This document shows, one piece after another, positions 20,599-43,864 of a stretch of 64,000 bases of DNA. The translations under genes were made by a program, and so were the position numbers. Each line of letters begins with the position of its first letter. The stretch's first letter is position 1. The DNA is from Phycisphaerales bacterium (GTDB lineage: Bacteria; Planctomycetota; Phycisphaerae; Phycisphaerales; UBA1924), in the NCBI GenBank assembly GCA_016741915.1, contig JACVCS010000005.1:1385-65384 (forward strand). The letters run 5' to 3'. The notes under the pieces were generated by a model. That model worked only from the letters and a program-made list of their open reading frames with translations. It ran no database searches and was not told where the DNA came from.

Positions 20599-20690
20599 TT
20601 CGCGGCGTTGCGCAGAAAAAAAGCCGCCGCCGACAAGTTCGTCGACGGCGGCTCCTGAAGTCGCTCTGCGATATCGATTGAGTTCGTACA

Positions 20691-22682
20691 TCAAGGCGTG
20701 TTCAACGCGCGTTCGAGACGTTCGAGCCGGGCTTTCAGTTCGGCGTTCTGTGCGTCACGCTTCTTGAGTTCTTCCTCAAAGCGAACGCGATCGGCTTCAC
20801 GCTGGAGTTGCTGCTGCTTGATCGCCTGGATCGCCACCGCGGTCAGGCGTGAGTAATCCATGCCCGTGACCTTGCCCTCGGCGTCGAAGAAGACCACTTC
20901 GGGGAAGACCTTGGCGACGTCTTCAGCAACGAAGCCGATGTCGTGCTCGCGACCGGGGCGGTCCTTGGCGAAGTCGGGGTTCCAATCGAAGGAAACACCT
21001 TCGAGCTTCAAGAGCTTGTCGAGCGCGTCGGTCATCGGCGCGACGTTGTGCTTGAAGCGGCCCGACGAAGGGACGGCGACGTTGTTCGCCACCACGTTGC
21101 CCGCGACGGTGAGACGCTGGCTGGGCGAGGTGGTGCCGATGCCGACATTGCCGTTGGCGTCGATGAGCATCCGCGAAGCATTCGCGGTACGGTCCACGAT
21201 CTGAAAACTCGCGTTCAGGGGGTTGCCCGGCCCGTTGTTGGTGGACGAAGATTGGATTGACCACGTGCGTGCCGGCACGTTGCCGCCAATCTCGGGGCCG
21301 CCGGTCATGGCGATCTGGGTGTCGGAGTTGCTCCGAACATCCAGGTTGAAGCCCGGCAGGTTTGTGCCCATCCCGACGAAGCCGCTCGGGGTCACGATGA
21401 ATCGCGACGCGTTCGACGTTGCGTCGAAGAGCTCGAAAGCACCGGAAGAGTAGTTGTTGAAGCCGTTGGAACGGAGCAGCCAGTTCCGTCCCTGGGAGGA
21501 GGAGTTCTCGAGCGAAACGACCGTTCCAAAGTTGCTCGGGCTGCCAAATCGGATCTGGTTCTCGTTCTCGGTGAGTTGCACGTGGAGCTTGGCGGTGGGG
21601 GAGGTGGTGCCGATCCCGACGTTCCCCGCGGTATAACTGATGGAGGAGTTTGAGCCGCCGACCCAGGGGCTGAAGGCGCCGGTGATGTTCGCGGGGACGC
21701 CCAGAACGCCGGTCCACGGGACGCTGCCTGCGGAGGTGGCGTTGTTGGCCGAGAGGGCGGTGAATGCGGTCACCGCGGACTGGGCCAGGCGTGCCTGCGG
21801 GACGGCGTTGATGGCTTGACGGGGTGAAAGCGTGACGAAACCGGAGCCGGGGGGAGACTCGACCTCGATGTTCAGCCACAGGGCCTGATCGGATTGGATC
21901 GCAGAGCCGAAGTCGAGCGTGGTGGTGATCACACCGTCGGTGATGTTGGTGAAGTTGCGGGTGATCGGCGGGGCGAGATCGGACGCGGAGGCGGCGAATG
22001 TCGGGTAGCCGCAGAGCGTGAAGCGAACGTTCGCGGGCCCAGTCACCGGCACACCGGCGCTCACGAGCTTGCCTTGATAGGTGAAGGCGTTTGAGACTTG
22101 CTGCGCGGGGGGCTGGTTGAAGGTGATTGACCAGCGAGAGATGCTGCCGGGTGCGGAGTTGTTCCCGTCGTCAGAAATGTAGAGCTTCCAACTGCCGTTC
22201 GGGTCTTTCCCGATGAGCGGGGTGAGCGATGTTTCGTACGGCGCGGGCGGCGCGGGGGAGGGAAGGCTGGCGGCCGCGTTGGAGGAGCAGGCGTAAACGC
22301 CCGAGACGACGTTTGTGCTGAAGGTCGGGAGCGTGGCGGTCCCATCGGGGATAAAGGTCAGGACGTTTGCGAAGGCAACGCCGGTTCCGTTGGTGTTGGC
22401 GATGAGGCTGATCTTTTCTCCGGTTGGCGAGACGAGCAGCACGTTGACATCGCCGAAGAATCCGTGGGTCACGCCTTCGAGTTTAACGCTGATGTACTCG
22501 ATACTCGATGGCGCGCCGGTTACGTTGATCGTGTTGGGGTATGGGAAGCCGCTGCCGAAGACGGGGATCGAAACCCCGCCGGTGCTGGTGTAGGTTTGGG
22601 CGAGCGTTGAAGCCGTGAACAGGCCCACACCCGCGGCGACCGCGAGCGAAGAGAGGAAACGAACAGAACGGGTGATACTCAT
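20691..22682 (-). CDS. secreted fibre-like protein A: P-domain-like N-terminus, FTYQG module, beta-rich middle, S74-like autoprocessing C-terminus, coiled coil
   Basis: 663 aa. Signal peptide LAVAAGVGLFTASTLAQ. P-domain-like region (VLLVSPTGEKISL...NGSWKLYISDDGNNSAPGSISRWSITF). FTYQGKL...ALWLNIEVESPPGSGFVTLSPRQ. GNVGIGTTSP repeats. The C-terminus SSGRFKHNVAP...LEGVSFDW...IGFVAEDVAKVFPEVV...DYSRLTAVAIQAIKQQQ matches the peptidase S74 / intramolecular chaperone pattern. Confidence 0.8.
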   Translation of the reverse strand: MSITRSVRFLSSLAVAAGVGLFTASTLAQTYTSTGGVSIPVFGSGFPYPNTINVTGAPSSIEYISVKLEGVTHGFFGDVNVLLVSPTGEKISLIANTNGTGVAFANVLTFIPDGTATLPTFSTNVVSGVYACSSNAAASLPSPAPPAPYETSLTPLIGKDPNGSWKLYISDDGNNSAPGSISRWSITFNQPPAQQVSNAFTYQGKLVSAGVPVTGPANVRFTLCGYPTFAASASDLAPPITRNFTNITDGVITTTLDFGSAIQSDQALWLNIEVESPPGSGFVTLSPRQAINAVPQARLAQSAVTAFTALSANNATSAGSVPWTGVLGVPANITGAFSPWVGGSNSSISYTAGNVGIGTTSPTAKLHVQLTENENQIRFGSPSNFGTVVSLENSSSQGRNWLLRSNGFNNYSSGAFELFDATSNASRFIVTPSGFVGMGTNLPGFNLDVRSNSDTQIAMTGGPEIGGNVPARTWSIQSSSTNNGPGNPLNASFQIVDRTANASRMLIDANGNVGIGTTSPSQRLTVAGNVVANNVAVPSSGRFKHNVAPMTDALDKLLKLEGVSFDWNPDFAKDRPGREHDIGFVAEDVAKVFPEVVFFDAEGKVTGMDYSRLTAVAIQAIKQQQLQREADRVRFEEELKKRDAQNAELKARLERLERALNTP
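20811..21168. repeat. near-identical ~358-bp tract shared with 26681..27038 (3' ends of fibre genes A and D)
   Basis: Hand alignment at an offset of 5870 nt shows about 7 mismatches. Similarity drops sharply on both sides. Confidence 0.85.
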
Positions 22683-22769
22683 GACAGATTCCTCAGCATT
22701 GTGAGTGACGTTGGGTCAACGGATCGGCTCGGGTGATCGTCGGCGTGTCGGCCGAACGGGTTGATCTGC

Positions 22770-24590
22770 TTATCTGCTTTCGCTGGTGATTTTCTGCAGG
22801 GCCGCCTCGAGCGCTTCAAGGCGGGCCTTGAGCTGTGCATTATCGGCATCTCGTTTGGTGAGTTCGGCCTTGAGCATTTCGAGCTGACGGTCCTTCTCTT
22901 GACGCAGGTCACGCAGGGCTTCGACCATCAGGGCGGTGGTGGCACGTTCGGTGACGAAGCGGGTGCCGGTGGCGTCGGTGCTGACCCAATCTGGGAAGAC
23001 GCGAGCGACTTCGTCGGCCATGAGGCCGAACTGTGTGCCGGGCAGGGCTTGCCCGCTGGCGACGCGATCGTCGTTGTAGAGGAAGGAGTAGCCGCGGAGG
23101 CTCATGAGTTTGTCGAGAGTTCCCGTGAGCGGTGCGATGTCGTGCTTGGCGCGGGGATCAGAGAGGACACCCCATGACCCGCCACCGGGCTTCAGGGCCT
23201 GGCCGTCGGACTGGAAGCGGAAGCGTTCGAAGAGGCCGCCGCCGGTGGAGGTGGTGCAGATTCGGAAGGAGTCTGTGCCGGTGGTACTGTTGTTATCGCC
23301 GATGATCAGACGCAGCTCGGTCGAGTCGGCGGCGACGTTCACCCTCTGAAAGTACATGGCGTCGGTGTTCTCCGCGTTGCTGCCCTGGTCCGCGATGGGG
23401 CCGAAGTTCAGGCGCCCGCTGTTCGCTGAGGTGTTGATCTGGACATTGCCGGTCACGGTGAGTCGCTCGGGCGGGGCCGCACCGGAGGTGTCCCCGATGT
23501 TGACGTTGCCGTTCGCGTTGAGCAGGAGGTTCCAGGCGGAGTTGTAGAAGCCGATGTTGTCGTTGTCGCGCATGCCAACGAATGCTCGGTCGGTTGGGTT
23601 GGTGACGGGAGAAGCGAACCAGATGCCGGGCGAGCCGCCGCTGGTTCCGGACTCTCCGCGAACGCGGATGCGTCCGGGTGCGAGTTGCAACGCGGTGTTG
23701 GCGGTGTTGGCGAAAGCGGCGACACCGGCGGCGGCGTCGACGGACGAGGCCGGAGTGACATAGGTACGGAACCAGTAGTTGAAACCGCTCCCAGCGCGGG
23801 AACCGGCCGCACCGGGGATCGAGTTTGCTGCTTCTTGGATGACGATGTTGCCTGAGAAATCGAAGGTGTAAGGTGTGCCGGCCTGGACGAGGATGTTCGG
23901 AACGACGAGATCGCGTTGAAGTGGGGAAAAGTTGTTGCCGGGCAACAGGGCGGTGAAGGTGCTGATGAGGGGGCCGTTGGTTCCAACACCGATGTACACG
24001 CGCACGGTGAGCGTCTGCGGTGTCTGGCTGAGGGCGGAGCAGACGCGGAGTTGCAGTCGGGTGAGCTTGCCTGAGACGGACGGTGTCCAAGATTGCCACG
24101 CGGGTGAGATGGCACCCACGTTGAAAACGATCTGACCTGCAACGTCCTGCGCTTGATCGAGCGATTCGGGCCCTCCTCGCGTTATGGCGATTCCGGCGAG
24201 CCCTTGCGCGAGCGGCGCGGGTGTGAGGGCCTGGCGGGGTGAGAGGGTTGTGAAGGACCCCGCGCCGGCGGGTGTGCGGACACTGATTTCAACCCAACGA
24301 GGCTGACCATCATCAAAGGCGGCGCCGAAATCCAGAGGAACGGTGAAGAGGCCGTTGGTGACGGTGACGTTGGTGAGGTTGACGGCAGGGGCGATGGGCG
24401 ATCCACCGGTGAGCGTGGAGAAGAGCTCGGCGCGCAGGTCGATAACACCGGTGATCGGCGCGCTCGACGAAGAGAGAGAACCCTGGTAGGTGAAGGCGGT
24501 AGTGGATTGAGCGGCCGCAAACGGAACAAAGAGCAGCGCGGCGCAGAGACTGATGACAAGACCGCGAAGCGTACTGAAAGACATCGACAT
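22770..24590 (-). CDS. secreted fibre-like protein B: no P-domain, FTYQG module, type-2 middle, S74-like C-terminus (type 2)
   Basis: Trimmed to ATG 24588-24590 (MSMSFSTLRGLVISLCAALLFVPFAAAQ). The mature N-terminus goes directly into TAFTYQGSL...RWVEISVRTPAGAGSFTTLSPRQ. C-terminus SDPRAKHDIAPLTGTLDKLMSLRGYSFLYN...FGLMADEVARVFPDWV, followed by a coiled coil. Confidence 0.75.
   Translation of the reverse strand: MSMSFSTLRGLVISLCAALLFVPFAAAQSTTAFTYQGSLSSSSAPITGVIDLRAELFSTLTGGSPIAPAVNLTNVTVTNGLFTVPLDFGAAFDDGQPRWVEISVRTPAGAGSFTTLSPRQALTPAPLAQGLAGIAITRGGPESLDQAQDVAGQIVFNVGAISPAWQSWTPSVSGKLTRLQLRVCSALSQTPQTLTVRVYIGVGTNGPLISTFTALLPGNNFSPLQRDLVVPNILVQAGTPYTFDFSGNIVIQEAANSIPGAAGSRAGSGFNYWFRTYVTPASSVDAAAGVAAFANTANTALQLAPGRIRVRGESGTSGGSPGIWFASPVTNPTDRAFVGMRDNDNIGFYNSAWNLLLNANGNVNIGDTSGAAPPERLTVTGNVQINTSANSGRLNFGPIADQGSNAENTDAMYFQRVNVAADSTELRLIIGDNNSTTGTDSFRICTTSTGGGLFERFRFQSDGQALKPGGGSWGVLSDPRAKHDIAPLTGTLDKLMSLRGYSFLYNDDRVASGQALPGTQFGLMADEVARVFPDWVSTDATGTRFVTERATTALMVEALRDLRQEKDRQLEMLKAELTKRDADNAQLKARLEALEAALQKITSESR
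22905..23228. repeat. near-identical ~324-bp tract shared with 24763..25086 (3' ends of fibre genes B and C)
   Basis: Hand alignment at an offset of 1858 nt shows about a dozen mismatches. The tract encodes the type-2 S74-like domain. Confidence 0.85.
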
Positions 24591-24627
24591 ATCTGTGATC
24601 TCCGAGAGCAATCGTTCGTTTGAGTGT

Positions 24628-26496
24628 TTACTTGGGTTGATCAGCGCGTTCACGAGCGAGTTGGTTGATGAGCGACTTGAGCTGAGCCACTTCGGCTTTC
24701 AAGGCCTCGACTTCACGACGATCGGCGCTGGCCTGGGCCGCGACTTCGTCCTTTTCTCTCCGCAGATCACGCAGGGCCTCGACCATCAGGGCGGTGGTGG
24801 CGCGCTCGGTGACGAAGCGGGTGCCGGTGGCGTCGGTGGAGACCCAATCTGGGAAGACGCGGGCGACTTCGTCGGCCATGAGGCCGAACTGCGTGCCGGG
24901 CAGGGCTTGCCCGCTGGCGACGCGATCGTCGTTGTAGAGGAAGGAGTAGCCGCGGAGGCTCATGAGTTTGTCGAGAGTTCCCGTGAGCGGTGCGATGTCG
25001 TGCTTGGCGCGGGGATCGGAGAGGGCGGCCCATGATCCGCCGCCGGGCTTCAGGGCCTGGCCGTCGGACTGGAAGCGGAAGCGTTCGGTGAGGATGCCGC
25101 TGACGGAAGTGGTGCAGATGCGGAGCGAGTCGAGGTCGTTCGGGCCGCTGTTATCACCGATGACCAGGCGCAGCTCGGTCAAGTCGGTGCCGGCGTTGAT
25201 GCGGGAGAAGTAGACGGCGTCGGTGTTCTCGGCGCCGCTGCCTTCATCGCCGACGGTGCCGAAGGCGAGCTTGCTCGGCACGGAGGTGGTGCTGGTATTG
25301 AGCTGGGCATTGCCCGTGATGGTGAGACGCTCTGGGGGCGCAACACCCGAACCGTCACCGATGGCGATGTTGCCGTTGGCGTTTGCACGCAGGCGCCAGT
25401 CGCCGTTGATGAAGAAGCCGACGTTGTTATCGTCGCGCATTCCGACGAAGGCACGATCGGTCGGGTTGAACGCGGGCGACGCGAACCAGATTCCGGGCGA
25501 GTTGCTGGTCGTGCCGGTATCACCGCGGATGCGTTGACGGCCGGCGGCGAGCTGTGTGGCAGTGCTCGCGGTGAGGGCCAGGGTGGCGATCTGGGCGGTG
25601 CGTGCTTGCGGCACCGGGGTGATCGGCTGACGTGGACTGAGTGTGACGAAGCCCGAGCCGGGGGGCGACTCAACCTCGATGTTGAGCCAGAGTGCCTGGT
25701 CGGTATCGATGGCGGAGGCGAAGTCGAGGGTGGTGGTCACTCTGCCGGAAGAAATCGCGGTGAAAGATCTGGTGATCGCTGGAGCGATGTCGGAGATGTT
25801 TAACGGACGGCTCGGGTCGTTGCAGAGTGTGAAGCGAACGTTGGCATTGCCGTTGATCGGAACTCCAGATGCGGTGAGCACACCCTGATAGGTGAATGCG
25901 GTGGTGACGGTCTGTGGCGGGGCTTGGTCGAAGCTGATCGCCCAACCGCCGTCGAAGGTCCCGTCGTCTCCACTAGGGAAGTCGTCCAACACGTACAGAC
26001 TCCAAGTTCCGTTGGCGTTGGTGCCCAGGAGGGGGGAAAGCGAAGTCAGGTAAGGACCGGCCGGGGCTGGCGCGGGCAGGCTACTCGGCACGGAGTAGAC
26101 GGAACAGGCATAGACCCCGGAGACGACCGGGGCGGTGAATCCTGGAAGCGTCTGTGTGGCGTCGGATGCAAAGATCAAGTTTGCGTTCGAGGCATCGCCG
26201 GAGCCGTTGGTGTTTGCCATGAGCAGAATCTTCTGACCGGCGGGCGAAACCAGCAGCACGTTGACGTCGTTCGCCCACGTGTGGCTGAAGTTTTTCAGTT
26301 GCACCGTGACGTAACTGATCGAGGCGGGCCCGCCGGTGACGTTGATGGTGCTCGGGTAGATCAAGCCAACACCGTTGCTGGATGATGAAGGGAAAGCGAT
26401 GGGTGCTGGATTGCTAAACGTTTGCGCGCAAACCGAAAGCGGTGTGAGCAAAGCCGCGGTAAGCGTGCAGGCGAGAAAGTGGAAACGGGTATTCAT
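24628..26496 (-). CDS. secreted fibre-like protein C: P-domain-like N-terminus, type-2 middle, S74-like C-terminus (type 2)
   Basis: Trimmed to ATG 26494-26496 (MNTRFHFLACTLTAALLTPLSVCAQ). P-domain-like VLLVSPAGQKILL...NGTWSLYVLDDFPSGDDGTFDGGWAISF. ALWLNIEVESPPGSGFVTLSPRQ. The C-terminal ~110 aa are nearly identical to protein B. Confidence 0.8.
   Translation of the reverse strand: MNTRFHFLACTLTAALLTPLSVCAQTFSNPAPIAFPSSSSNGVGLIYPSTINVTGGPASISYVTVQLKNFSHTWANDVNVLLVSPAGQKILLMANTNGSGDASNANLIFASDATQTLPGFTAPVVSGVYACSVYSVPSSLPAPAPAGPYLTSLSPLLGTNANGTWSLYVLDDFPSGDDGTFDGGWAISFDQAPPQTVTTAFTYQGVLTASGVPINGNANVRFTLCNDPSRPLNISDIAPAITRSFTAISSGRVTTTLDFASAIDTDQALWLNIEVESPPGSGFVTLSPRQPITPVPQARTAQIATLALTASTATQLAAGRQRIRGDTGTTSNSPGIWFASPAFNPTDRAFVGMRDDNNVGFFINGDWRLRANANGNIAIGDGSGVAPPERLTITGNAQLNTSTTSVPSKLAFGTVGDEGSGAENTDAVYFSRINAGTDLTELRLVIGDNSGPNDLDSLRICTTSVSGILTERFRFQSDGQALKPGGGSWAALSDPRAKHDIAPLTGTLDKLMSLRGYSFLYNDDRVASGQALPGTQFGLMADEVARVFPDWVSTDATGTRFVTERATTALMVEALRDLRREKDEVAAQASADRREVEALKAEVAQLKSLINQLARERADQPK
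24763..25086. repeat. partner copy of 22905..23228
   Basis: See 22905..23228. Confidence 0.85.
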
Positions 26497-26563
26497 GTTC
26501 GAACTCCTGTGAGGGGATGGCAATCCGGTGGGTGGGGAAATGATGTCGATGCGCGTACACGCG

Positions 26564-28519
26564 TTACCGTAGCGTTGGACGCGGCTCCTTGAGCAACTGT
26601 TCAAGCCGGTCGAGTCGGGCCTTCAGCTCGGTGTTCTCCGCGTCGCGTTTGGCCAGTTCGCTCTCGAACTTTGCCTGCTGCTGCTTGATCGCCTGGATCG
26701 CCACCGCGGTCAGGCGTGAGTAATCCATGCCCGTGACCTTGCCCTCGGCGTCGTAGAAGACCACCTCGGGGAATACCTTGGCGACTTCTTCAGCAACGAA
26801 GCCGATGTCGTGCTCGCGACCGGGGCGGTCCTTGGCGAAGTCGGGGTTCCAATCGAAGGAAACACCTTCGAGCTTCAAGAGCTTGTCGAGCGCGTCGGTT
26901 ATCGGCGCGACGTTGTGCTTGAAGCGGCCCGACGAAGGGACGGCGACGTTGTTCGCCAGCACGTTGCCCGCGACGGTGAGACGCTGGCTGGGCGAGGTGG
27001 TGCCGATGCCAACATTGCCGTTGGCGTCGATGAGCATTCGCGCAGCCCCGGCGGAGCGGTCGACGATCTGGAACGAGCCGTTGAGTTGGCTTCCCGGGGG
27101 CGAGTTCGTCGATGAGGATTGGATCGACCAGGTGCGAGCGGCGGCGTTGCCGCCAGTTGCCGGGCCGCCGGTGAGTGCGATCTGCGTGTCGGAGTTGGTA
27201 ACGAGGTGCAGCGGGAAGGTCGGCGTGATCGTTCCGAGGCCGATGTTTCCGTTGGGCAGGAAGGTCATGCGGACGGCGGCGGAGGTTCCGTCGCGGATCA
27301 AGAACGCACCGGCGAGTTCGGTGTTGCTGGGACCGGTCGAAACCAACTGCCAGGTGCGTCCGTCGATGGCACCGTTTCGAATCGCAAGCCAAGTGCCAAA
27401 GCCGGAGCCGCTGTCGAAGAGGACCTGATCGAAGGTGATTCCCGAAAAGACGTGGAGGTTCGCAGAGGGCGATGGGGTACCGATGCCGACGCGCCCGAGG
27501 CTATAACTGATCTGGTTTGTGCCGGCGTCCCATGGGCTGAAGGCGTTGCTGACGTTTGCGGGCACGCCGGTGATTCCCGTCCATGGGACCGAGTTGGCGG
27601 TTACGGCCGAAGTCGCCGTCGTGGCGATGCGTGCCTGCGGCGCGGGAGTCAGAGGCTGGCGGGGTGAAAGGGTGACGAACCCCGAGCCCGGGGGGCTTTC
27701 GACTTCGATCTGCAGCCACTGAGCGCGGTCGGTCTTCAACTGACGCCCGATGTCGACGCTGGCACTGAAGAGGCCGTTCTGCACCGCGACGGCGTTGACG
27801 GTGCTGATGTTCCCTATGCGCAGAGCTTCGGAAGTCGAGGTTGGGTTTTCCCACACGGAGAATCGGAAGTTCGCGGTGGAACTGCTCGGAGCGTTCTCGA
27901 GCTTGCCTTGGTAGGTGAACGCGTTGGACTGAGAAGTTGCCGCCGGCAAGAACTCGATCGACCAACCGCCGGTGATAACCAACGGATCTGCCGGTGCGAA
28001 CGAATCGGACACGAATAGCTGCCAGTTTCCGTTGGCCTGAGTGCCCGTCAATGATGAAAGCGTGGCGTTGTACGGACCGCCCGGTGCCGGTGACGGGGCT
28101 GAGAAGTTGACGGAGGAGGTGGTGAGATAAACCCCGGAAACAAAGTTCGTGGAGGTTGTTGCGGGGGCTGTCGTTGCCTCAGCGAAAAACGTGGCGGTGG
28201 TGTTGACGGCATCGCCGCTGCCGAAGTTTCCGTTCAGGAGCGCGATCGCCTGTCCACCCGGGCTGACGAGAACGATGCGAATATCAGAGCACCAGGTGTG
28301 GTTGATCCCGTTGATGGTCACCGCGACGCGTTGAACCGTGTTGCCCGCCAATGCCCCGCTGGGCACGGTGATCACACTTGGGTAGAGATTTGCGGTGGTT
28401 TCGTTGAGCGGCACGCTCAACGGGGTCGCGTTGGAAAATGTCTGCGCACGCGCGGACGATTGCGCCAGGACAAGCACGCTCGATGCGGCGATGATCGGCA
28501 GGAGAAGACGCTTCAGCAT
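26564..28519 (-). CDS. secreted fibre-like protein D: P-domain-like N-terminus, type-1 middle, S74-like C-terminus (type 1)
   Basis: Trimmed to ATG 28517-28519 (MLKRLLLPIIAASSVLVLAQSSARAQ). IVLVSPGGQAIAL...NGNWQLFVSDSFAPADPLVITGGWSIEF. AQWLQIEVESPPGSGFVTLSPRQ. The C-terminal ~120 aa are nearly identical to protein A. Confidence 0.8.
   Translation of the reverse strand: MLKRLLLPIIAASSVLVLAQSSARAQTFSNATPLSVPLNETTANLYPSVITVPSGALAGNTVQRVAVTINGINHTWCSDIRIVLVSPGGQAIALLNGNFGSGDAVNTTATFFAEATTAPATTSTNFVSGVYLTTSSVNFSAPSPAPGGPYNATLSSLTGTQANGNWQLFVSDSFAPADPLVITGGWSIEFLPAATSQSNAFTYQGKLENAPSSSTANFRFSVWENPTSTSEALRIGNISTVNAVAVQNGLFSASVDIGRQLKTDRAQWLQIEVESPPGSGFVTLSPRQPLTPAPQARIATTATSAVTANSVPWTGITGVPANVSNAFSPWDAGTNQISYSLGRVGIGTPSPSANLHVFSGITFDQVLFDSGSGFGTWLAIRNGAIDGRTWQLVSTGPSNTELAGAFLIRDGTSAAVRMTFLPNGNIGLGTITPTFPLHLVTNSDTQIALTGGPATGGNAAARTWSIQSSSTNSPPGSQLNGSFQIVDRSAGAARMLIDANGNVGIGTTSPSQRLTVAGNVLANNVAVPSSGRFKHNVAPITDALDKLLKLEGVSFDWNPDFAKDRPGREHDIGFVAEEVAKVFPEVVFYDAEGKVTGMDYSRLTAVAIQAIKQQQAKFESELAKRDAENTELKARLDRLEQLLKEPRPTLR
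26681..27038. repeat. partner copy of 20811..21168
   Basis: See 20811..21168. Confidence 0.85.
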
Positions 28520-28618
28520 GATCAAACTCCAGTTTTGAGACGAAGTACACACGGCAGACAGCATGGCAGAAACCGGCTTTCGCGACGCGGGGGTTGCGAT
28601 TCAGGCATTCGGCAAGAG

Positions 28619-30208
28619 TCATCGCCCTCCAATGAGCGTGAAGGAAAACGCCGAGTCGATCTGAGCGCCGCCGCCGTTCGCGCAGCGAACGTCGACGAGC
28701 CCGGAGCCGTCGGGATTCAACGCGCCGCTGGTGGTGGTGACGATGACATTGGAGCTGATGGCGTTGCCGGTAAATGTCGGGAAGTCGCTGAACCCGTTCG
28801 GGCCTGTCCACTGAATCCGGTACAAACCGACACCGGTCCGGCTGACGGTGAAGCCCGATCCGCCGGTGACGGTGCCCAGGGCGCTCACCGAGCCGCGCGT
28901 GATGCGGAGCGTCTCACCCGCGCCCACTGCGGAGTACTGGCTGGTGTTCCCGAAGCGGATGTTGCCGCGGACATCAAGGCGGGCCTGCGGCGTGGTGTTG
29001 CCGATGGCGACGTTGCCGACTTCGTCGATGCGCATCAGTTCGCTGTAGCTGGAGCCGAGAGAAGATTCGACGCCGAAGCGAAGTGCGTTGCCGTTGCTCC
29101 AGATGATTGAACCGGGAGAACCGGCGCCTTGCAGGCTGGCGTAAAGGAAGTTGGTGCCGTTGGTCAGGCCGATGGTGGGAAGGTTTGAAAGCGACGAAGG
29201 CGAAGCGACCTGCAGCGACATCGATGGTTTCAGCACGCCGATGCCCACGCGCGAGGGGGTGCTGACCGACGCGGCGCCGCCGACGGTTTGGAGCTGCGAG
29301 CTCCACCCGCCGGAAACCACCGGCGGGACGGTCAGCGGCTGCCGCGGTGTGAGCTTGACAAAACCGGAGCCGGCGGGAGATTCAATCTCGACCTCGAGCC
29401 ACAGGGCGCGGTCGCCCGGGAGTGACTTGCCGAAGTCGACGTTCGCTGTGAAGACCCCTTGGTTCACAGGAATGGCGGAAACGGAGAGCGGCCCCAGCAG
29501 GCGCATCGCGCTGTTGCTGTTCGATGCCGACTGCCAGACCGAGAAGCGGGCGTTGATCGGGCCCGTCACGCCCGGGTTGAGCTTGCCCTGGTACGTGAAG
29601 GCGGTGGGAGTCGGCGTGGGGTCATCAAAGAACTCCAGTTCCCACCCGCCGGTGATGCTCAACGGGTCCGCGGCGGAGAATGAATCGGCAACATAGAGGC
29701 TCCAGAATCCGTTGCTGGCGACGCCGCTCAACGCGGCAAGCGTGCCTGTATACGGCCCGGCGGGCGCGGGCGCGATGAACGTGGAGATTCCATTCGGGTT
29801 CGGCACGTACGCACCCGAAGGCAGGTTGCTCCCGGGTTCAGGAATGGCCGCAGGTGCCTCGGCGAAGAATGTGACGGTGGCGTTGTTTGCATCGCCCGCA
29901 CCCGTGTTGTTTGCCAGCAGTTGGATCGGAGCGCCCACCGGCGGCACCAGCAGAATCTGTGCGTCGGCGAGCCACGTGTGGTTGAACCCCTTGATCGTCA
30001 CGGCGACCCGACGCACGACATTGCCGCTGACTCCGTTGAGCGGCACGTTGATCACGCTGGGGTAGAGCGAAGGGTAGTTTGTGCCGGGCGGACAGGTGAT
30101 CGCGCCGGTGTTGGAAAAGACCTGCGCGTGCGACGATGTTGCGAGCCCGAGGCACGAGGTCACGCAGGCGATGAACGAAGCACAGAAGGTGGCGAGCGGG
30201 TCTCTCAT
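28619..30208 (-). CDS. secreted fibre-like protein E: P-domain-like N-terminus, FTYQG module, distinct C-terminus without S74 domain
   Basis: 529 aa. Signal peptide CVTSCLGLATSSHAQ. ILLVPPVGAPIQL...NGFWSLYVADSFSAADPLSITGGWELEF. FTYQGKL...ALWLEVEIESPAGSGFVKLTPRQ. It ends in a different beta-rich domain (...GLYRIQWTGPNGFSDFPTFTGNAI...SFTLIGGR). Confidence 0.8.
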   Translation of the reverse strand: MRDPLATFCASFIACVTSCLGLATSSHAQVFSNTGAITCPPGTNYPSLYPSVINVPLNGVSGNVVRRVAVTIKGFNHTWLADAQILLVPPVGAPIQLLANNTGAGDANNATVTFFAEAPAAIPEPGSNLPSGAYVPNPNGISTFIAPAPAGPYTGTLAALSGVASNGFWSLYVADSFSAADPLSITGGWELEFFDDPTPTPTAFTYQGKLNPGVTGPINARFSVWQSASNSNSAMRLLGPLSVSAIPVNQGVFTANVDFGKSLPGDRALWLEVEIESPAGSGFVKLTPRQPLTVPPVVSGGWSSQLQTVGGAASVSTPSRVGIGVLKPSMSLQVASPSSLSNLPTIGLTNGTNFLYASLQGAGSPGSIIWSNGNALRFGVESSLGSSYSELMRIDEVGNVAIGNTTPQARLDVRGNIRFGNTSQYSAVGAGETLRITRGSVSALGTVTGGSGFTVSRTGVGLYRIQWTGPNGFSDFPTFTGNAISSNVIVTTTSGALNPDGSGLVDVRCANGGGAQIDSAFSFTLIGGR

Positions 30209-30253
30209 GGTCTTCTCCCTCTGCGGGCGTGATTGGTCGTCTTGAACGGCGGA

Positions 30254-31585
30254 TCAGCGGGGTGATGCGGGCGTGTTTGGGCGGGGTGATTCGTCGGTGG
30301 CGTGTGCAAGCACGGCGCGGGCGGGCACTTGTGCGCCGCACTCGGGGCAGAGCTGTGAAGTCAGGCCCGTCAGGTCGTAGCGGCAGTTGGTGCAGAGGTT
30401 TTCGGCGAAGAAGCGGGCCTTGAGCGAAGGGCGGCTGCCGATGCTGTAGAGCGGAAACAGGAAGAGCGTTAGGGCCGCCAAGAGGAACATCACCGGCGCC
30501 GGACCGAAGAAGAGCGACGTGCCCACGGTGATGTCGAAGGCGAGATCGATGCCCACGCCCGAGAGTGTCCAGCCCGACAGGCGGCGAAGATCGAGCTTGA
30601 GGATGCGCCAACCGATGAACGCCCAGACGAGCGCCCGCTCGGCCAGCAGCACCGCCCAGGATTCGTAGAGTCGATCGGCCTTGCCGTCGGTTGCGTTCAT
30701 CACCAGCCACGCGACGTACAGCAGGCCGATCCCAACCACCGCGCGGGCGATGGCGATGGAGACCGCTGAGCCGCGCGACAACGGCTCGGGCGTGCCCACG
30801 CGGTAGCGGAACGCGAGGATGAAGAAGACGTACGTGATCGGCTTGACGAGCAGCAGCAGCGGCAACGCAACCCCCACACCGAGGTTGTCGAAGGCCGGGC
30901 CGCACGCCAGGAACACGGTGGTCATAGCTCGAGAGTCCAGACCGGGAAACGAACGAACGAGGAACCAACGCCGCGCCGGTCCTTCGCCAACGCGAGCCCG
31001 AGCGGCGCGGGTTGAGCCGAGCGAAGCGCGGGGGGACAGATCACGGAACCGAGGCTCGGTGGGCACACCAGCGGTGGAAGGACCGCCTTCAGAGCATACC
31101 ACATCGCGGCCCGAAATCCGGGGCAATGTGCACCAACCCGTCTCTTCGTCGCGCGGTGTGTGTGAAGCTGGGCTGATTGACCCGCTCGATGGCACGAGCG
31201 ATCGCGCATACGTTCGGCGAATGACGATCCCACCTCCATCGACCAAGGGGAAGCCCTCGTTTCTGGACACCCAGTCGTCCGTGGTGGCGAGGCACTGCCG
31301 CTTCGTGACGGCCCGGAGCGCCGCGTTGACGAACTTTCCTTCGGCGGGGAGATCCCACGCCTCGGTGTCGAGCCTCGCGCGCACCCACACGCCGGGCCCG
31401 AGGATGTCGTTGTCGGTGCGCCAGCGCAGCAGGTGGAACCACACGCTGGGCCCGCGGCGGTCGATCAGCGCACTCGGCGATGACCGCGCCACGATGCCGC
31501 ACATCGTGCACGTGGTGTGCGGCCAAGGCTCGACGGGCTCCGCGCGCCACGGATCGGGCGCGGCGGGCGGATTCCGCGGCGGCAT
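30254..31585 (-). CDS. polytopic membrane protein with C-terminal CxxC...CPECG zinc ribbon, possibly with a soluble N-terminal domain
   Basis: The secure part is 30254..30925 (ATG 30923-30925). It reads MTTVFLACGPAF..., has 5-6 TM helices, and ends in CTNCRYDLTGLTSQLCPECGAQV (nt ~30333-30394). The same frame is open and has high GC3 upstream to ATG 31583-31585 (MPPRNPP...CTMCGIV...WFHLLRWRTDNDILGPGVWVRARL...GFPLVDGGGIVIRR), so one 443-aa protein is plausible. The stop lies 46 nt before fibre gene E. Confidence 0.55.
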   Translation of the reverse strand: MPPRNPPAAPDPWRAEPVEPWPHTTCTMCGIVARSSPSALIDRRGPSVWFHLLRWRTDNDILGPGVWVRARLDTEAWDLPAEGKFVNAALRAVTKRQCLATTDDWVSRNEGFPLVDGGGIVIRRTYARSLVPSSGSISPASHTPRDEETGWCTLPRISGRDVVCSEGGPSTAGVPTEPRFRDLSPRASLGSTRAARARVGEGPARRWFLVRSFPGLDSRAMTTVFLACGPAFDNLGVGVALPLLLLVKPITYVFFILAFRYRVGTPEPLSRGSAVSIAIARAVVGIGLLYVAWLVMNATDGKADRLYESWAVLLAERALVWAFIGWRILKLDLRRLSGWTLSGVGIDLAFDITVGTSLFFGPAPVMFLLAALTLFLFPLYSIGSRPSLKARFFAENLCTNCRYDLTGLTSQLCPECGAQVPARAVLAHATDESPRPNTPASPR

Positions 31586-31693
31586 CGGGCTCCGATCGAC
31601 GAGGGTTTGCGCAAGGGCCCTGCGGCGTGCGCGGGGCACGGCGTGCGAGTCTGCCGGCCCGCGGTGAACGTGTGCAGACCGGGCACGGCGTGT

Positions 31694-31972
31694 TCAGTGC
31701 GTGAAGTTCGCGTGCGGGCCGGCGGCGGCGGCGGCGGAGCGGTCGATGATCGGGCCGTCGACGTTGTTGGCGGCGATCTCGATGCCAGGCGTGTTGGCGG
31801 CGTTGACGGCGGTGCGCAGCCCGATCTCGGCGAGGGCTTTTTGGGTCGAAGCCGCCGGCCCCAGCGGCGGAGACAACGGCCCGGCCAGGGCGGTGCTCTG
31901 AACCATCACCGCGGCGAGGATCAGCGCCGCCGCGGCGCACGCGGTGCGCACGGTGGCACGGCGGAGGCTCAC
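31694..31972 (-). CDS. small secreted protein, possibly a truncated N-terminal fragment of a larger surface protein
   Basis: GTG 31970-31972. Signal peptide (M)SLRRATVRTACAAAALILAAVMVQSTALA|GPLSPPLGPAASTQKALAEIGLRTAVNAANTPG... Third-codon positions are almost all G/C. It stops after about 60 mature residues. Confidence 0.4.
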   Translation of the reverse strand: MSLRRATVRTACAAAALILAAVMVQSTALAGPLSPPLGPAASTQKALAEIGLRTAVNAANTPGIEIAANNVDGPIIDRSAAAAAGPHANFTH

Positions 31973-32259
31973 CGCACCGGAACGCGGCGAGGGCTCGGCG
32001 GGGTTCGTCGGATGCTTGCGGTTCAGCGTCGAACGGTCGGTGCGGGTGCTCGTGCCGAGAATCGACCACGCACAAGCGGAACTGGCCACTGGGCACGGGC
32101 GGCCCTCCAGCGGCCGTGCCCCGATCGGCACGGCGGCGGCCCGCACGCCGGCGCTCGCGCGGCGGAGGGTCGACAAAGCACCGCCCGCGCCGGCGTACGC
32201 GGGGCGCACGCGGCCGAACCGAACGCACGCCCACGCCAGCGCCGCACAGGTCCACACGA

Positions 32260-32574
32260 ACGCAACGCACGTGCAGACCACCGTCAGAAAAGTCTGGGCC
32301 AACGTCAGAAAAGTCTTGACGAATGTGAGGAAAGTCCTGACGAACGTGAGAAAAGTCTTGGCAAACGTGAGAAAAGTCTTGGCAAACGCCAGAAAAGTTC
32401 ACACCAACGCCACGTTCCATCACACCAACGCCGCATTCCATCACAGGAACGGAGCATTCCTTCAGACAAACGCGACGTTCGATCACACAAACGCGACGTT
32501 CCATCACACCAACGCGGCATTCCATCACACCAACGCGGCATTTCTTCAGGCCTACGCAGCGTTTGGTTCGGCGA
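32260..32574 (+). repeat. tandem array of 15 head-to-tail 21-bp units in two subfamilies (plus ~2 degenerate units from ~32218)
   Basis: The units read from the sequence are as follows. One unit ACGCAACGCACGTGCAGACCA. Six A-type units (consensus ACGTGAGAAAAGTCTTGGCAA, 32281-32406). Seven B-type units (consensus ACGCGACGTTCCATCACACCA, 32407-32553). One decayed unit (32554-32574). The period is exactly 21 bp throughout. Confidence 0.9.
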
Positions 32575-32731: not shown

Positions 32732-35617
32732 TCACTCCGGCGGCGAATGAAATGCTGAGCCGGGATCGAGCTTCGGCAGCTCACTTCGTGCCCAACTGAT
32801 CGCCGAGTTGGCGAAAATCTCTATTTGGTCTTGAGGCGTCTGGATGGGATCGCACTGCGCCAAGCACTTGATCAACTCTGTGCGATCAAACAGACGCTGA
32901 GCGAAACGCTCATCGACCGTTCCTTGCCATACGGAAGTGGAACGGGAGAAGAACTGTATGTTCGATTCCTCTTCTTCATCGATATCGCTCATCCGTCCAT
33001 TCACGATGAATGACGCCAGAATCAATCTGCCTGTCTTCGGTTGGAGTTTCGTAAATGCGAGAATCGAACGGGCGACACCCGGCCACCCTTCGAACGGCTC
33101 GGCGTTCGGAAGTCCGGCTCGGATCCGATCAAGGCCCCAAGACAGGTGGTAAAGATCCCACGGGCGGTGTGGATTCACGGCATGCACAAGCTTCTGCCAT
33201 CCGTGCTCGTTGCCGAAGTTGGCAACGAGAGCTTGTTCAAGCAGCTGTCGAGTGGAACCGTGAGCAACGATACCTTCAGTTGAACCCTTTTCGTGAACGT
33301 GCTCGGCCCGCAACCAGTCGGTGATTTCATCGGCAACAGAGAGGTTCCTTGGAAGGAACTCCAGGAGAAGCGGCTCGAGGACTTTGCGAACTTCAACGGG
33401 ATGGATCTGACCTTCATGAATAACTGTCTGAACATGATTGATCTTGCTGAAGTGATCTCCAACGCTCCATCCCGATTTTGGTAGATCCGCAAGAGCTCGG
33501 ATGTAGGCGGGGAGCAACTCTCGCCATGTTGACCGGATCTTGGCCTGCCCAAACTGGCTCGCAGCAAACTCGAACCGAGAATCGGCCAGTCGAAATGGAA
33601 AGGAAAAACGATCAGACTCAGGCCATGCGGCAATTTCGCCTAACAGCAACTGATCGCTCTCGTCTTTATCGACGGGTGACTGGCTCAAGAATCTTGGCCA
33701 GTAATCTCGAATCCGGGTGCTTGCGAAACCCTGAGGCCAGACCGACCACCAGTGACGATCATACTGAGATACCTGGACGTAGTGGGGGATGAGATAGTGG
33801 GCAAGGCTGCGTACAGCGATCGCCCGATCAACCGGGAGTTTTGCCGCGGTCGCCTCAACTTGCATGGTGCTCTCTTTGGATGGGCTGTGTTGCTCGCCGC
33901 TGGCGCGTCGAGCTTCGCTTCTCAGCCCGCTGAGCTCTCGGTCAAAAATGGCGAAGAACCCCGGCTCGCACTCACGCAGCACAATCGCCGCCAAGGCGTG
34001 ATCGAAATCGATCTCGCCGGGGAGAGTGGTCCACAGTTCGATGACCCGTCGTAGAACAGACTTCAACATTCGAGGTGTTGTAGCCAACACCAGAATCGCT
34101 TCCCATGGTTCCAGCAATCGTTGCGGCGGAGGTGCGAGTACGACCCCTGTGTGCGCTCGGTACTGAGGCGGTACCATCAGTTCGCGATGTGTCCGATCAG
34201 CGGTGTCGATCACAGGTCGGGGGAAGCCGTTCAGGCATGCGCCGCGGACCGTGCTGATGACGTGCCAAGCGCACTGGACTTCTATTCGCGGCATCCGCTC
34301 AACGTATCGTGCAATCTTGCTGTGGTCGAACCGAGAAGTCAGCGAAGTGTCGGCCATCACCAACGAAACGTAGGGACAGCGGTCGAGCAGATGGAGCAAC
34401 GCCCTCACCGGCCCCAGTTTGCCTTCATCGACGGGGTTTGCATCGGTTGTGGCGTCGCCGTCAATGCCACCAAAGCGTTCGAAATCCTCGATCCAGAGTA
34501 CGAAACGCAGCCCGGTGGCTCCGGCAATGCTCGCGAACTTGTCCAGAACATGCTTCGGCTCGGTCTTTCGCGCCATCAAGCCCGCGATCATGTCTGTCCA
34601 CGTCGCCGAGCGTTGAACACTGCTCACGTAATCGTTCGCGATCCCGGTGATGGCCAAGGTATCAACGTGACGTGACAGCTCCGTCGCGAGCGAGTCAAGA
34701 ATCCCGTGCAATGCCGCCTCAGCCGAAGCGAAAGGCCAAAGCGACACGGTGACGACCCGGATATGCGGTTTGGTCCGCAGTTCATGAATGACCAAGTTTC
34801 GGATCGAAGACTTGCCCGATCCTCGTTGCCCAATGAGGGTCGTGGTTTCGCCTTTTTCGTTCTCTGCAAGCCGAGCTGCGATCCGCTTTGCGATGGGGGT
34901 ATGACGGAATGCGTCGTTGATCGGCGTGCGGATCTCGTCGTCCGTCTCGATCCAAGCCCTGACCTTGTCAAACGTGCTGAGATCGTTGACGTACGACCGA
35001 GCCTGTGGAATCGCAGGGGAACGGCCAACAAAGCCGTGACGACGCTGCCATAACCACGTCCAGAGCGCGTTGGCGAACGAAGCGTCGTCGATTCCATCCA
35101 ACCAGTCCCGAAACCACCTTCGCCGTATCGTCCACCGAAAGCTCGCGAAGATGACGAACACCATTGCGATGAGCAGAAATACTCTCTGCGCGTTGTTGGC
35201 ATTGCTCCAAAACTGATTCAGTCCATACACAATGTCGTTTAGATCAGAACGAACCCGCCACGACTCGGGAAAAAAGAAGACCAGAACGAGTCCCATGGCT
35301 GAAGAAACCCAGACAGGCGGATAGAGAGGAAGGTACCGTAGACCAATCACCCCTTCGAGTGGGCGAAGGCCCATGATCAACCAGTAAGCCGGAATCGACG
35401 CGAGAACAAGCCAGAATATGACTGCGTGTTCCCGCCTAGCGAGCCAATCCGAAGCAGGCTCGCAGTACTGCTGCAGGGCTTCACCCGCAAGCATCATCGT
35501 CAGTGCCGCGATGAGCGCGTAGATACTGATCACGCACCAACGAGCGAGTGAGTGCACCAGCAACTGGGGTATGGAGTTCGGACCTACCGGCGTCATTGGC
35601 GATACTCTGGTAAACAT
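32732..35617 (-). CDS. membrane-anchored KAP-like P-loop NTPase (4 N-terminal TM helices)
   Basis: ORF 32732..35734 with the start set at ATG 35615-35617 (35594-35596 is an alternative). TM helices: VISIYALIAALTMMLAG, VIFWLVLASIPAYWLIMGL, YPPVWVSSAMGLVLVFFF, VFLLIAMVFVIFASF. Then DAFRHTPIAKRIAARL, Walker A LIGQRGSGKSS and Walker B RFVLWIEDFERF. The C-terminal region of about 550 aa is helical. Hand-counted samples give about 47-53% G+C. Confidence 0.75.
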   Translation of the reverse strand: MFTRVSPMTPVGPNSIPQLLVHSLARWCVISIYALIAALTMMLAGEALQQYCEPASDWLARREHAVIFWLVLASIPAYWLIMGLRPLEGVIGLRYLPLYPPVWVSSAMGLVLVFFFPESWRVRSDLNDIVYGLNQFWSNANNAQRVFLLIAMVFVIFASFRWTIRRRWFRDWLDGIDDASFANALWTWLWQRRHGFVGRSPAIPQARSYVNDLSTFDKVRAWIETDDEIRTPINDAFRHTPIAKRIAARLAENEKGETTTLIGQRGSGKSSIRNLVIHELRTKPHIRVVTVSLWPFASAEAALHGILDSLATELSRHVDTLAITGIANDYVSSVQRSATWTDMIAGLMARKTEPKHVLDKFASIAGATGLRFVLWIEDFERFGGIDGDATTDANPVDEGKLGPVRALLHLLDRCPYVSLVMADTSLTSRFDHSKIARYVERMPRIEVQCAWHVISTVRGACLNGFPRPVIDTADRTHRELMVPPQYRAHTGVVLAPPPQRLLEPWEAILVLATTPRMLKSVLRRVIELWTTLPGEIDFDHALAAIVLRECEPGFFAIFDRELSGLRSEARRASGEQHSPSKESTMQVEATAAKLPVDRAIAVRSLAHYLIPHYVQVSQYDRHWWSVWPQGFASTRIRDYWPRFLSQSPVDKDESDQLLLGEIAAWPESDRFSFPFRLADSRFEFAASQFGQAKIRSTWRELLPAYIRALADLPKSGWSVGDHFSKINHVQTVIHEGQIHPVEVRKVLEPLLLEFLPRNLSVADEITDWLRAEHVHEKGSTEGIVAHGSTRQLLEQALVANFGNEHGWQKLVHAVNPHRPWDLYHLSWGLDRIRAGLPNAEPFEGWPGVARSILAFTKLQPKTGRLILASFIVNGRMSDIDEEEESNIQFFSRSTSVWQGTVDERFAQRLFDRTELIKCLAQCDPIQTPQDQIEIFANSAISWARSELPKLDPGSAFHSPPE

Positions 35618-36050
35618 GACCCCTCTGACTTGGCAGTGTACTCCGATCAACGACCGAGTGAACAGCGGTACAGTTGTCGGGCTCTCAAGATAAAGACACC
35701 CCGATATCGATTTCAACGCGGGAACCTTCCACAATACCCCGCCAGACTACGTGTGTGTGTCGATATCATCCGTTCGGACGCGCAATAAACTCCTGGCTCC
35801 CCCTGCTCATGGGTGGCATCTTTCAGAATCTTGCGCGCCGCAAGCGGCAGATCCGGCGTTCTTCGCCGGATTCTCCGCGGGTGTGGCGTCCATTCTCGCA
35901 CATGTCACAATCATCAATAAAAAAATCACGTCCAACTCAAGTGTGATGACGACTCTTCCGAACTCATCTTGACTCCCGCGCGTTGTTGCGTGGGGTCAAC
36001 ATCACATGGCCCGGGCCTTCCGTTTCGCCTCGGGCTTCGGAGGTCTTATT

Positions 36051-36749
36051 ATGTCCACCCTGCCCGACAAACGCGAGGAACTTATCACTTGGTGCCAGGC
36101 CCACGCTCCCGTCTGGGAGAGCAACCCCGCCTCCATCGGCCTGACCGTCGCCCAGGCCAACGCCTTTATCGACCTGACCGAAGAGGCCCAAACCGCGCTT
36201 TTGAACCAGGAAAAGGCCAAGCAAGCCGCACTGAGCGCCACCAACTCGGCGCAGGAGACCATCGGCGATCTGCGCTCCATGGCCGGGGAGTTTTTGCGCA
36301 CCATCCGCGCTTTCGCCGCCACGACCAACAACCCGCAGGTCTTCATCAACGCCCAGATCCCGCCCACCGCCGCCCCCTCGCCCGTCGGGCCCCCCGGCAC
36401 CCCCGACAACTTCAAAATCGCCCTCGACACGCAAGGGGCTATCACCTTACGTTGGAAATGCCAGAACCCGGGCGCGGCCAGCGGCACTTCGTACATCGTC
36501 CGCCGCCGGTTCGGTTCCAGCGGCGAGTTCCTCTTCGTCGGCGTGGCGAACAAAAAGACCTTCACCGATTCGACGATCTCCGGCAACGTCTCGCAGGTGC
36601 AGTACACCGTGCAGGCCGTGCGCTCGGACCAGAGCGGCCCGCTGAGCCAGACCGTCGTGGTCCGCTTCGGCTCGGGCGGCGCCGGCGGCGGGCAGATCCT
36701 CAGCGTCACCAGCGGCGAGCCCGGCGACAACGTCAAGCTCGCGGCGTGA
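36051..36749 (+). CDS. hypothetical protein with C-terminal fibronectin type III-like domain
   Basis: Start set at ATG 36051 (MSTLPDKREELITW). The N-terminal ~120 aa are helical. After PPGTPDNF comes IALDTQGAITLRWKCQNPGAASGTSYIVRRRF...FTDSTISGNVSQVQYTVQAVRSDQSGPLS (FN3 W/Y/L pattern). No signal peptide. Confidence 0.6.
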   Translation: MSTLPDKREELITWCQAHAPVWESNPASIGLTVAQANAFIDLTEEAQTALLNQEKAKQAALSATNSAQETIGDLRSMAGEFLRTIRAFAATTNNPQVFINAQIPPTAAPSPVGPPGTPDNFKIALDTQGAITLRWKCQNPGAASGTSYIVRRRFGSSGEFLFVGVANKKTFTDSTISGNVSQVQYTVQAVRSDQSGPLSQTVVVRFGSGGAGGGQILSVTSGEPGDNVKLAA

Positions 36750-36845
36750 GACGGGAAGGGCCGAGGGTTCAGGGCCGAGGGCCGAGTGGGTGTATTCAAC
36801 GCCCGGTTGCCCGGCGGCCACGGACGCATGAAGCATCACCGCACC

Positions 36846-43861: not shown

Positions 43862-43864
43862 GCG

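Follow-up and report, generated by a model that had tools for sequence, protein, structure and literature searches.

Why would an uncultured planctomycete carry, side by side on its chromosome, five genes for exported proteins that resemble phage tail fibers, and what might these proteins do? The question is raised by a 64,000-nucleotide (nt) stretch of contig JACVCS010000005.1, hereafter the window, from a Phycisphaerales bacterium (UBA1924; assembly GCA_016741915.1). Five co-directional genes on its minus strand, here lettered A to E, occupy positions 20691-30208; all five products carry a Sec-type signal peptide that can be read from the sequence, and NCBI names them "tail fiber domain-containing protein." A sixth gene, F, encodes a membrane protein and lies upstream of E. 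We conclude, with a probability of about 0.62, that this is a cassette of five chromosomal genes for exported, homotrimeric adhesins that resemble phage tail fibers and are of the same kind as the mosaic adhesive trimers (MATs) of Bdellovibrio. The fiber genes and the modules of their products are as follows.

20691-22682, minus strand: fiber gene A, 663 amino acids (aa); P-domain, FTYQG module, type-1 shaft, type-1 S74 domain, C-terminal coiled coil.
22770-24590, minus strand: fiber gene B, ~606 aa; without P-domain; FTYQG module, unique insert of ~150 aa, type-2 shaft, S74 domain (SDPRAK).
24628-26496, minus strand: fiber gene C, 622 aa; P-domain, FTYQG module, type-2 shaft, type-2 S74 domain.
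26564-28519, minus strand: fiber gene D, 651 aa; P-domain, FTYQG module, type-1 shaft, type-1 S74 domain.
28619-30208, minus strand: fiber gene E, 529 aa; P-domain, FTYQG module, capping-loop repeats, C-terminal beta-sandwich knob; without S74 domain.

The six co-directional minus-strand open reading frames (ORFs) of the initial annotation were present at the coordinates it gave; its spacing of about 40-100 nt also held (37-102 nt), but the starts of B, C, and D needed correction to the more realistic positions 24590, 26496, and 28519, respectively. With Pfam cut-offs of 22 bits for Peptidase_S74 (PF13884) and 21 bits for P_proprotein (PF01483), the S74 domains first proposed by eye were recovered above the cut-off in A, B, C, and D (52.4, 46.0, 43.9, and 54.2 bits, respectively; E-values of 7e-12 to 2e-14). 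Their Ser-x4-Lys dyad (SDxxxK-type) reads SSGRFK in A and D and SDPRAK in B and C, and its Ser and Lys, together with the intervening Arg, are invariant among 14 relatives. The catalytic residues are conserved, and by homology self-cleavage is predicted before S539 in A, before S544 (ORF numbering) in D, and before the serine of SDPRAK in B and C. The P-domain scored 37.7, 35.5, and 37.1 bits in A, C, and D and a borderline 21.1 bits in E, where a hidden Markov model built from relatives identified the N-terminus as the same domain (E = 2e-50); Pfam gave no P_proprotein match in B, which was correctly described as lacking the domain but also bears the extra ~150-aa stretch after its FTYQG module. 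The fold agrees with this assignment: when a model of A was compared with the PDB by Foldseek, the top 24 matches were the P-domains of furin, Kex2, and Aeromonas ASP (E = 3e-5, probability 1.0), with Bd3182 at 3e-3 and GH2 and CBM-type matches ranked lower. The P-domain begins at the mature N-terminus, and Pfam found no Peptidase S8 catalytic domain in any of the five proteins; the annotation "subtilisin-like proprotein convertase," given to relatives by the Joint Genome Institute, was rejected on these grounds.

In protein A, whose signal peptide is predicted to be cleaved between ...STLA and QTY, the P-domain spans residues ~30-192 and the FTYQG module ~195-300, followed by three capping-loop repeats of the form VG(I/M)GT..P...L.V at residues 355, 436, and 513 and by the S74 dyad S539/K544. 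An AlphaFold2 (AF2) model of A based on a 28-sequence alignment placed the P-domain (30-190) at a predicted local distance difference test (pLDDT) score of ~90 and the FTYQG module, a beta-sandwich (200-290), at 80-88; the terminal helix was also confident. Protein E, which had been read as a P-domain plus FTYQG module without S74, was borne out as such: it has no Pfam S74 match and ends in a separate knob of ~100 aa, modeled as an 8-strand beta-sandwich (AF2 of the last 144 aa; residues 46-144 at pLDDT ~90). A fold search of the PDB with the knob gave no significant match (best E = 0.38) and so left unconfirmed the guess of a TNF/C1q-like fold. By local phmmer, homologous knobs form the C-terminal ends of other FTYQG-headed proteins, and the relative P0017 is 72% identical to E over the C-terminal 231 aa.

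Common to all five fiber proteins is the FTYQG...PRQ module of ~110 aa (consensus end WLxIEVESPPGSGFVTLSPRQ), encoded in gene A, for example, at window positions 21783-22100 (residues ~195-300). A, C, and D have the segment WL.IEVESPPGSGFVTLSPRQ in nearly unchanged form; the same had been said of E, but there the corresponding segment reads WLEVEIESPAGSGFVKLTPRQ. A profile of the module matched 50,240 representatives (50% clusters) at E ≤ 1e-3 and 25,830 at E ≤ 1e-10. No Pfam model exists for it and, with at least that number of representatives at 50% clustering, it is seemingly among the larger protein domains still without a Pfam entry. In nearly all of the 150 best of the 50,240 matches the module directly follows the signal peptide, with its start in the first ~20-60 residues, and the proteins that it heads differ in their C-terminal parts, among which are S74 fibers, RCC1 repeats, and LVIVD/lactonase propellers; this position and variety fit a generic anchoring or export role. 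The profile matched nothing significant in the PDB. The NCBIfam model NF053851 (Bdello_MAT_N; curated cut-off of 60 bits) matched the modules of A (19.5 bits, E = 7e-4) and C (15.5 bits), and 13 of 30 FTYQG modules of relatives matched it at E ≤ 1 (best 1.6e-9), which suggests a remote similarity lying outside the NCBIfam subfamily model.

The known system to which the cassette can be compared is that of Bdellovibrio bacteriovorus, which has 21 MATs, cell-surface homotrimeric fibers of which 13 end in S74 (SDxxxK) and 8 in other tips (Caulton et al., 2024; PMC10769870). In all of them the signal peptide is followed at once by a conserved, beta-rich N-domain of ~130 aa, for which the PDB offers no homologue and which presumably forms the cell-proximal anchor; their capping-loop motif (V-G-G/N-pi-x-x-P-x-x-x-L) is shared with MyRF, and their tips have been swapped in evolution (PMC10769870). 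Named members include Bd3182 (S74 type) and Bd2133, Bd1334, and Bd2439 (non-S74 types), and MAT-like proteins of other phyla, among them the planctomycete Ca. Uabimicrobium, appear in Supplementary Table S3 of that study (PMC10769870). Against PDB sequences, the shaft of A matched Bd2133 (8OND, E = 4e-5), a Bd3182-type entry (8OJN), and MyRF. For a profile of the shaft plus knob of E, the top five entries of the whole PDB were Bdellovibrio MATs (8OND, which is Bd2133, at 1e-13, 8OML, 8OL4, 8OJN, and 8ON4), followed by MyRF. Capping-loop repeats of the VGIGTTSPxxxLxV type occur three times each in A and D and once in E; the motif is absent from the type-2 shafts of B and C. The FTYQG module starts right at the end of the signal peptide in B (cleavage between ...FAAA and QSTTAFTYQG), and a 165-aa P-domain intervenes in A, C, D, and E. 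The common chassis bears alternative tips, S74 in A-D and the beta-sandwich knob in E, and the orthologue of E at a related locus (L018) bears S74. The proteins of the window therefore fit the MAT design on four counts, namely the signal peptide, the N-module, the capping-loop shaft (in A, D, and E), and the S74 or alternative tip. The joining of P-domains to S74 fibers had at first seemed uncharacterized; the MATs are a characterized cellular counterpart (PMC10769870), and the N-terminal P-domain cap alone keeps that status. What is new here is this cap, the tandem cassette organization, and the phylum; the kind of protein is already known.

Modules have been exchanged both between paralogues and between strains. 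Pairwise and multiple alignments confirmed the mosaic scheme first drawn up for A-E: the S74 regions are 85% identical between A and D and 82% between B and C, compared with 31-37% for the cross-pairs, and the middle regions are 56% identical between A and D and 59% between B and C, the latter over ~400 aa in the C-terminal part of the middle. At the nucleotide level, two tracts of gene conversion stand out.

20809-21108 (A), paired with 26676-26975 (D), minus strand: gene-conversion tract A/D, 98% nt identity over at least 300 nt, covering the last shaft repeat and S74.
22890-23189 (B), paired with 24748-25047 (C), minus strand: gene-conversion tract B/C, 94% nt identity over 300 nt, covering the S74 domain.

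Sliding windows gave 96-99% nt identity over ~360 nt for A/D, compared with 42-79% (mostly 45-70%) elsewhere, and 93-99% over ~260 nt for B/C, compared with 30-75% elsewhere; the breakpoints lie at the invariant end of the FTYQG module and around the S74 block. Beyond the window, ~25 protein clusters share the architecture of P-domain plus S74, and when one genome of each GTDB species was scanned, 11 loci came to light, every one of them in a metagenome-assembled genome assigned to Phycisphaerales, Phycisphaerae, or Planctomycetota. Seven are tandem arrays of 2-5 fiber genes (L001, L005, L007, L009, L010, L011, and L016) and four have a single fiber gene (L003, L012, L014, and L017). Wherever examined, their flanks are cellular, with tRNA synthetases, DUF1501/DUF1800, a Ser/Thr kinase, HtrA, a pilin-like gene, and an aminotransferase among the neighbors.

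The window shares its locus with L005 and L011, in the order beta-helix gene, 317-aa gene, five fiber genes, ogt, rpmE, GDSL, and metH. Across these three the flanking genes are 93-99% identical (metH 97.5%, rpmE 98-99%), whereas the fiber genes are far more divergent. Gene 3 of L011 joins a D-type P-domain and module (70 and 86% identity) to a C-type shaft and S74 (72 and 89%), gene 5 of L005 combines a C-type head with an A-type S74 (94%), and the E-type gene of L018 (79% identity over 421 aa) ends in a D-type S74 and not in a knob. Gene B has a counterpart in L011 only, and an extra fiber, "X," occurs in L005, L011, and L018 and not in the window. Four natural recombinants in near-identical genomes offer a ready data set for mapping junctions and for the question of N-terminal binding.

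How such a cassette would work can be sketched from these data. Each protein would be exported through its Sec signal peptide, which reads as being cut between A and Q. In A-D, by homology with the endosialidase, T5 pb1, and Bd3182, the S74 intramolecular chaperone would nucleate trimerization of the beta-helical shaft and then cut itself off at the Ser of S-x4-K (in A, before S539), freeing a piece of ~125 aa made up of S74 and coiled coil and exposing the distal tip. Protein E, judging from its predicted structure, may trimerize via its beta-sandwich knob and end in it, like the non-S74 MATs. By analogy with MATs, the conserved N-terminal end (the FTYQG module, preceded by the P-domain in four of the five) may be the cell-proximal anchor, and the variable shaft and tip may bind ligands on other cells or particles. 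The comparative data show that the nearly invariant junction closing the FTYQG module and the S74 block serve as recombination points, across which heads, shafts, and tips pass between paralogues and strains to give a rapidly changing repertoire. The general idea of the initial annotation, a cellular repertoire of exported trimeric fibers, is supported. MATs were described only in 2024, in one predator, and the same chassis is found here in a distant uncultured planctomycete lineage, with a P-domain and a tandem arrangement; if the fibers turn out to be adhesins directed at other cells, that would be a hint that these Phycisphaerales have a lifestyle based on interaction.

A broader proposal, which we offer as tentative and in which we have distinctly less faith, has two parts taken jointly: that the P-domain-capped fibers might be a Phycisphaerales-specific adaptation of the MAT chassis, with the P-domain as a new envelope anchor or a second lectin head and recombination driving an "adhesin wardrobe," and that the FTYQG module might mark a very large, essentially unstudied class of phage-fiber-derived surface proteins in environmental bacteria. 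If this is true, the cassette would let uncultured Phycisphaerales attach to or exploit other cells, for example in an epibiotic or predatory lifestyle or on algal hosts.

Several observations weigh against reading the cassette as MAT-type adhesins. Shaft confidence was low in the AF2 monomer of A, as is expected when a trimeric fiber is modeled as a monomer. The Bdello_MAT_N model matched none of the modules of B, D, and E; its matches elsewhere are weak, far below 60 bits (no more than 19.5 bits in the window), and span profile positions ~97-157 of 162, about the last third of the model. The P-domain could equally be a second binding head and not an anchor. The best structural match of the A model in BFVD is A0A6J7WET4, a 612-aa protein named "Proprotein convertase, P [uncultured Caudovirales phage]" (E = 3e-10, 286 aligned columns), and so P-domain-bearing virion proteins may exist. 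Finally, to our knowledge Phycisphaerales are not predators, and the function of MATs in prey handling may therefore not transfer.

The sixth gene of the cluster and the sequence upstream of it proved to differ from their first description.

30254-30925, minus strand: gene F, a 223-aa polytopic membrane protein by hydropathy, with a C-terminal Zn ribbon, CTNCRYDLTGLTSQLCPECG (NCBI call IBJ18_01485).
30926-31639, minus strand: remnant of a gene for a soluble 317-aa protein, intact in L005, L011, and L018; its first ~146 codons are recognizable.
31694-32302, minus strand: internally deleted remnant of a gene for a secreted 443-aa right-handed beta-helix protein; the gene precedes the array in L005, L011, and L018.

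Gene F had been taken to encode 461 aa; the real gene encodes 223 aa, and the 461-aa ORF is a composite in which 237 codons upstream of F belong to the remnant of the 317-aa gene, whose reading frame happens to be in frame with F. That remnant is 38-56% identical to the L005 and L011 protein at the N-terminus only, the rest of the gene being gone. The beta-helix protein has the N-terminus ...GPLSPPLGP..TQK.LAE.EPR; its L005 copy lies at 3477-4808, and a 39% identical homologue adjoins the single fiber gene of L003 (8202-9413). The beta-helix gene was considered as a conserved partner of the fibers and rejected, being adjacent only in close relatives and L003 and not found near seven other fiber loci. 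On its upstream side the cluster of the window ends in decayed sequence. Two adjoining 21-nt tandem-repeat arrays (32282-32542; 5.6 and 6.9 copies, 82-85% matches) sit between the decayed beta-helix gene and a gene for a KAP-family NTPase.

The cluster is otherwise set among housekeeping genes. Its left flank consists of ogt and rpmE, both correctly named at the outset, a GDSL-like hydrolase gene, and metH, and its right flank of genes for the KAP-family NTPase, a PD-(D/E)XK nuclease, and an ATPase, and of sucC. A 1000-aa KAP-family P-loop NTPase (minus strand), a 317-aa ORF, and the PD-(D/E)XK nuclease (plus strand) are grouped at 32732-38156 and look like a possible defense-type islet adjoining the variable end of the cluster. 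Farther off, at 52194-58191 on the minus strand, one gene for a DUF1501 protein adjoins another for a DUF1800 protein of 1478 aa that bears a CBM60-like module, a gene pair typical of Planctomycetota; such a pair also adjoins the fiber locus L001. All five fiber genes have a Shine-Dalgarno (SD)-like GGAG/GAGG 6-10 nt 5' of the ATG. Consensus scans of the cluster returned no promoter and a terminator count at or below shuffle expectation; direct RNA folding found a single strong hairpin in the cluster, listed below, and none comparable between the fiber genes. A second element lies 11 kb from the cluster.

20616-20653, minus strand: intrinsic-terminator-like hairpin just 3' of gene A, in the gap where A and ogt converge; GC-rich stem of 15 bp, then T7, RNA folding free energy of -29.1 kcal/mol.
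42561-50719: small integrated phage-like or satellite-like element, with tRNA-Phe at 42561-42634 (plus strand) and an integrase and further genes on the minus strand.

The tRNA-Phe element, which had escaped the initial annotation, encodes on the minus strand a tyrosine integrase (42572-43861), a PrimPol/primase (44685-46898), and a tape-measure-like protein (48779-50719), along with a helix-turn-helix protein; no recognizable capsid or terminase gene lies within the stretch of it examined. It is set apart from the cluster by housekeeping genes, and we rejected it as the owner of the fibers on the grounds of distance, intervening housekeeping genes, and signal peptides.

Four other explanations of the cluster have to be weighed. 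That the genes are domesticated or orphan phage tail fibers, made for a particle (prophage, tailocin, or contractile injection system) encoded elsewhere or by the tRNA-Phe element, we consider very improbable. The C-terminal parts of A-D do match many PHROGs tail-fiber families and GenBank phage fibers, the element supplies an integrase, a primase, and a tape-measure-like gene at 42.5-51 kb, and the best BFVD match of A is a P-domain protein of viral-metagenome origin. The PHROGs matches, however, are mainly to the C-terminal ~130-200 aa of A-D; a few extend into the shaft, and none reaches the first ~270 aa. The matches of A in 50,697 GenBank phage genomes are to the shaft and S74, for the most part within residues ~350-640 (two begin at 226), leaving residues 1-225 without any match in that set; no relative was found among 2.9 million IMG/VR contigs. 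All five proteins have Sec signal peptides, which are incompatible with cytoplasmic virion assembly, and the tRNA-Phe element lies beyond sucC and the ATPase gene and does not occur in the syntenic loci over the length that they cover. Neither the cluster nor the fiber genes at nine related loci with flanks examined adjoin a gene for a capsid, terminase, sheath, or baseplate, which, with the IMG/VR result, supports the original placement of the cluster outside a prophage. Still more improbable, and already largely refuted by the distribution of F, is the idea first put forward, that the cluster is a system of six genes and that its polytopic Zn-ribbon membrane protein serves the fibers as a dedicated partner for export or anchoring. 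F does lie 45 nt upstream of E on the same strand, and at L018 an 80% identical homologue sits inside the array with a 4-nt overlap with the stop codon of the preceding fiber gene. Yet among the fiber loci examined F is present in the window and L018 only, being absent from the syntenic arrays of L005 and L011 despite their nearly identical flanks and from 11 of 11 scan loci; it has just 8 homologue clusters, compared with dozens for the fibers, and its homologues at 45-46% identity (P0251 and P0252) have no fiber neighbors. No SD-like sequence precedes it, and its ribbon motif (30335-30394; CxxC.Y.L.G...CPECG) recurs at 2093, 4219, and 6380 in unrelated membrane genes. Gene F is a variable passenger and not part of the fiber mechanism. 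The unrelated genes just mentioned form, at 1745-8005 on the plus strand, a tandem of three membrane paralogues of 672, 672, and 658 aa that are 28-34% identical, have no Pfam match, and each place the Zn ribbon CxxCGYxLxGL...CPECG after an N-terminal transmembrane hairpin.

Two further explanations remain. The proteins could work as soluble effectors after secretion, for example as lectin-like bacteriocins or depolymerases of polysaccharides and not as cell-attached adhesins, with the P-domain and the tip both acting as binding or enzymatic heads. This fits the signal peptides, the lack of any recognizable membrane or cell-wall anchor seen in A-E, the galactose-binding-like fold of P-domains, found in many secreted glycan-binding proteins, and the secreted beta-helix (pectate-lyase-like) gene that precedes the array in relatives. 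It is nonetheless unlikely, in that searches of the five proteins with Pfam, PHROGs, and NCBIfam detected no domain of a toxin, lyase, or hydrolase, conserved immunity-like genes are lacking, and the closest characterized relatives, the MATs, are cell-surface fibers. A structural surface coat or phage decoy, S-layer-like or akin to the fibers seen on planctomycete cells, would explain variability as evasion of phages or grazers, and it would agree both with the presence of several paralogues and with fast divergence and recombination of fiber genes between flanks that stay 93-99% identical; against it stand a copy number that ranges from 1 to 5 between genomes and an anchor-shaft-tip architecture that is that of adhesins, and we regard it as quite unlikely. 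We retain the reading of a probable cassette of exported trimeric adhesins.

Set beside known systems, the fibers of the window share features with four. With phage tail fibers and tailspikes such as the K1F endosialidase and the T5 L-shaped fiber pb1 they have in common the S74 Ser/Lys dyad, a shaft of the triple-beta-helix type, and modular evolution; unlike these, they have signal peptides, no virion-attachment N-terminus, no phage neighborhood, and an N-terminal half unmatched in GenBank phages. Their P-domains have the same beta-sandwich fold as those of the proprotein convertases furin, Kex2, and Aeromonas ASP (PF01483), in which, however, the domain lies C-terminal to the protease, whereas here it stands at the extreme N-terminus with no subtilisin catalytic domain. 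The ICA domain of MyRF (sequence match 7DC3) is likewise an S74-type trimerization and self-cleavage module preceded by a beta-helical stalk, but MyRF is a eukaryotic membrane-bound transcription factor and functionally unrelated. From MATs the window's fibers differ in the furin-type P-domain inserted between signal peptide and N-module in four of the five, in length (530-660 aa vs. ~1000 aa), in the arrangement of their genes (a single tandem cassette vs. mostly dispersed genes), in an N-module whose similarity to the MAT N-domain is remote and below the NCBIfam cut-off, in the knob of E, which has no detectable similarity to solved MAT tips, and in the host, a Phycisphaerales bacterium without a known predatory lifestyle as opposed to the predator Bdellovibrio. 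MATs and the window's fibers are alike in being cellular, in the signal peptide, the conserved beta-rich N-module, and the beta-helical shaft with capping-loop repeats, in ending in an S74 chaperone or an alternative beta-sandwich tip, in the chimeric swapping of these tips, and in the presence of several paralogues per genome.

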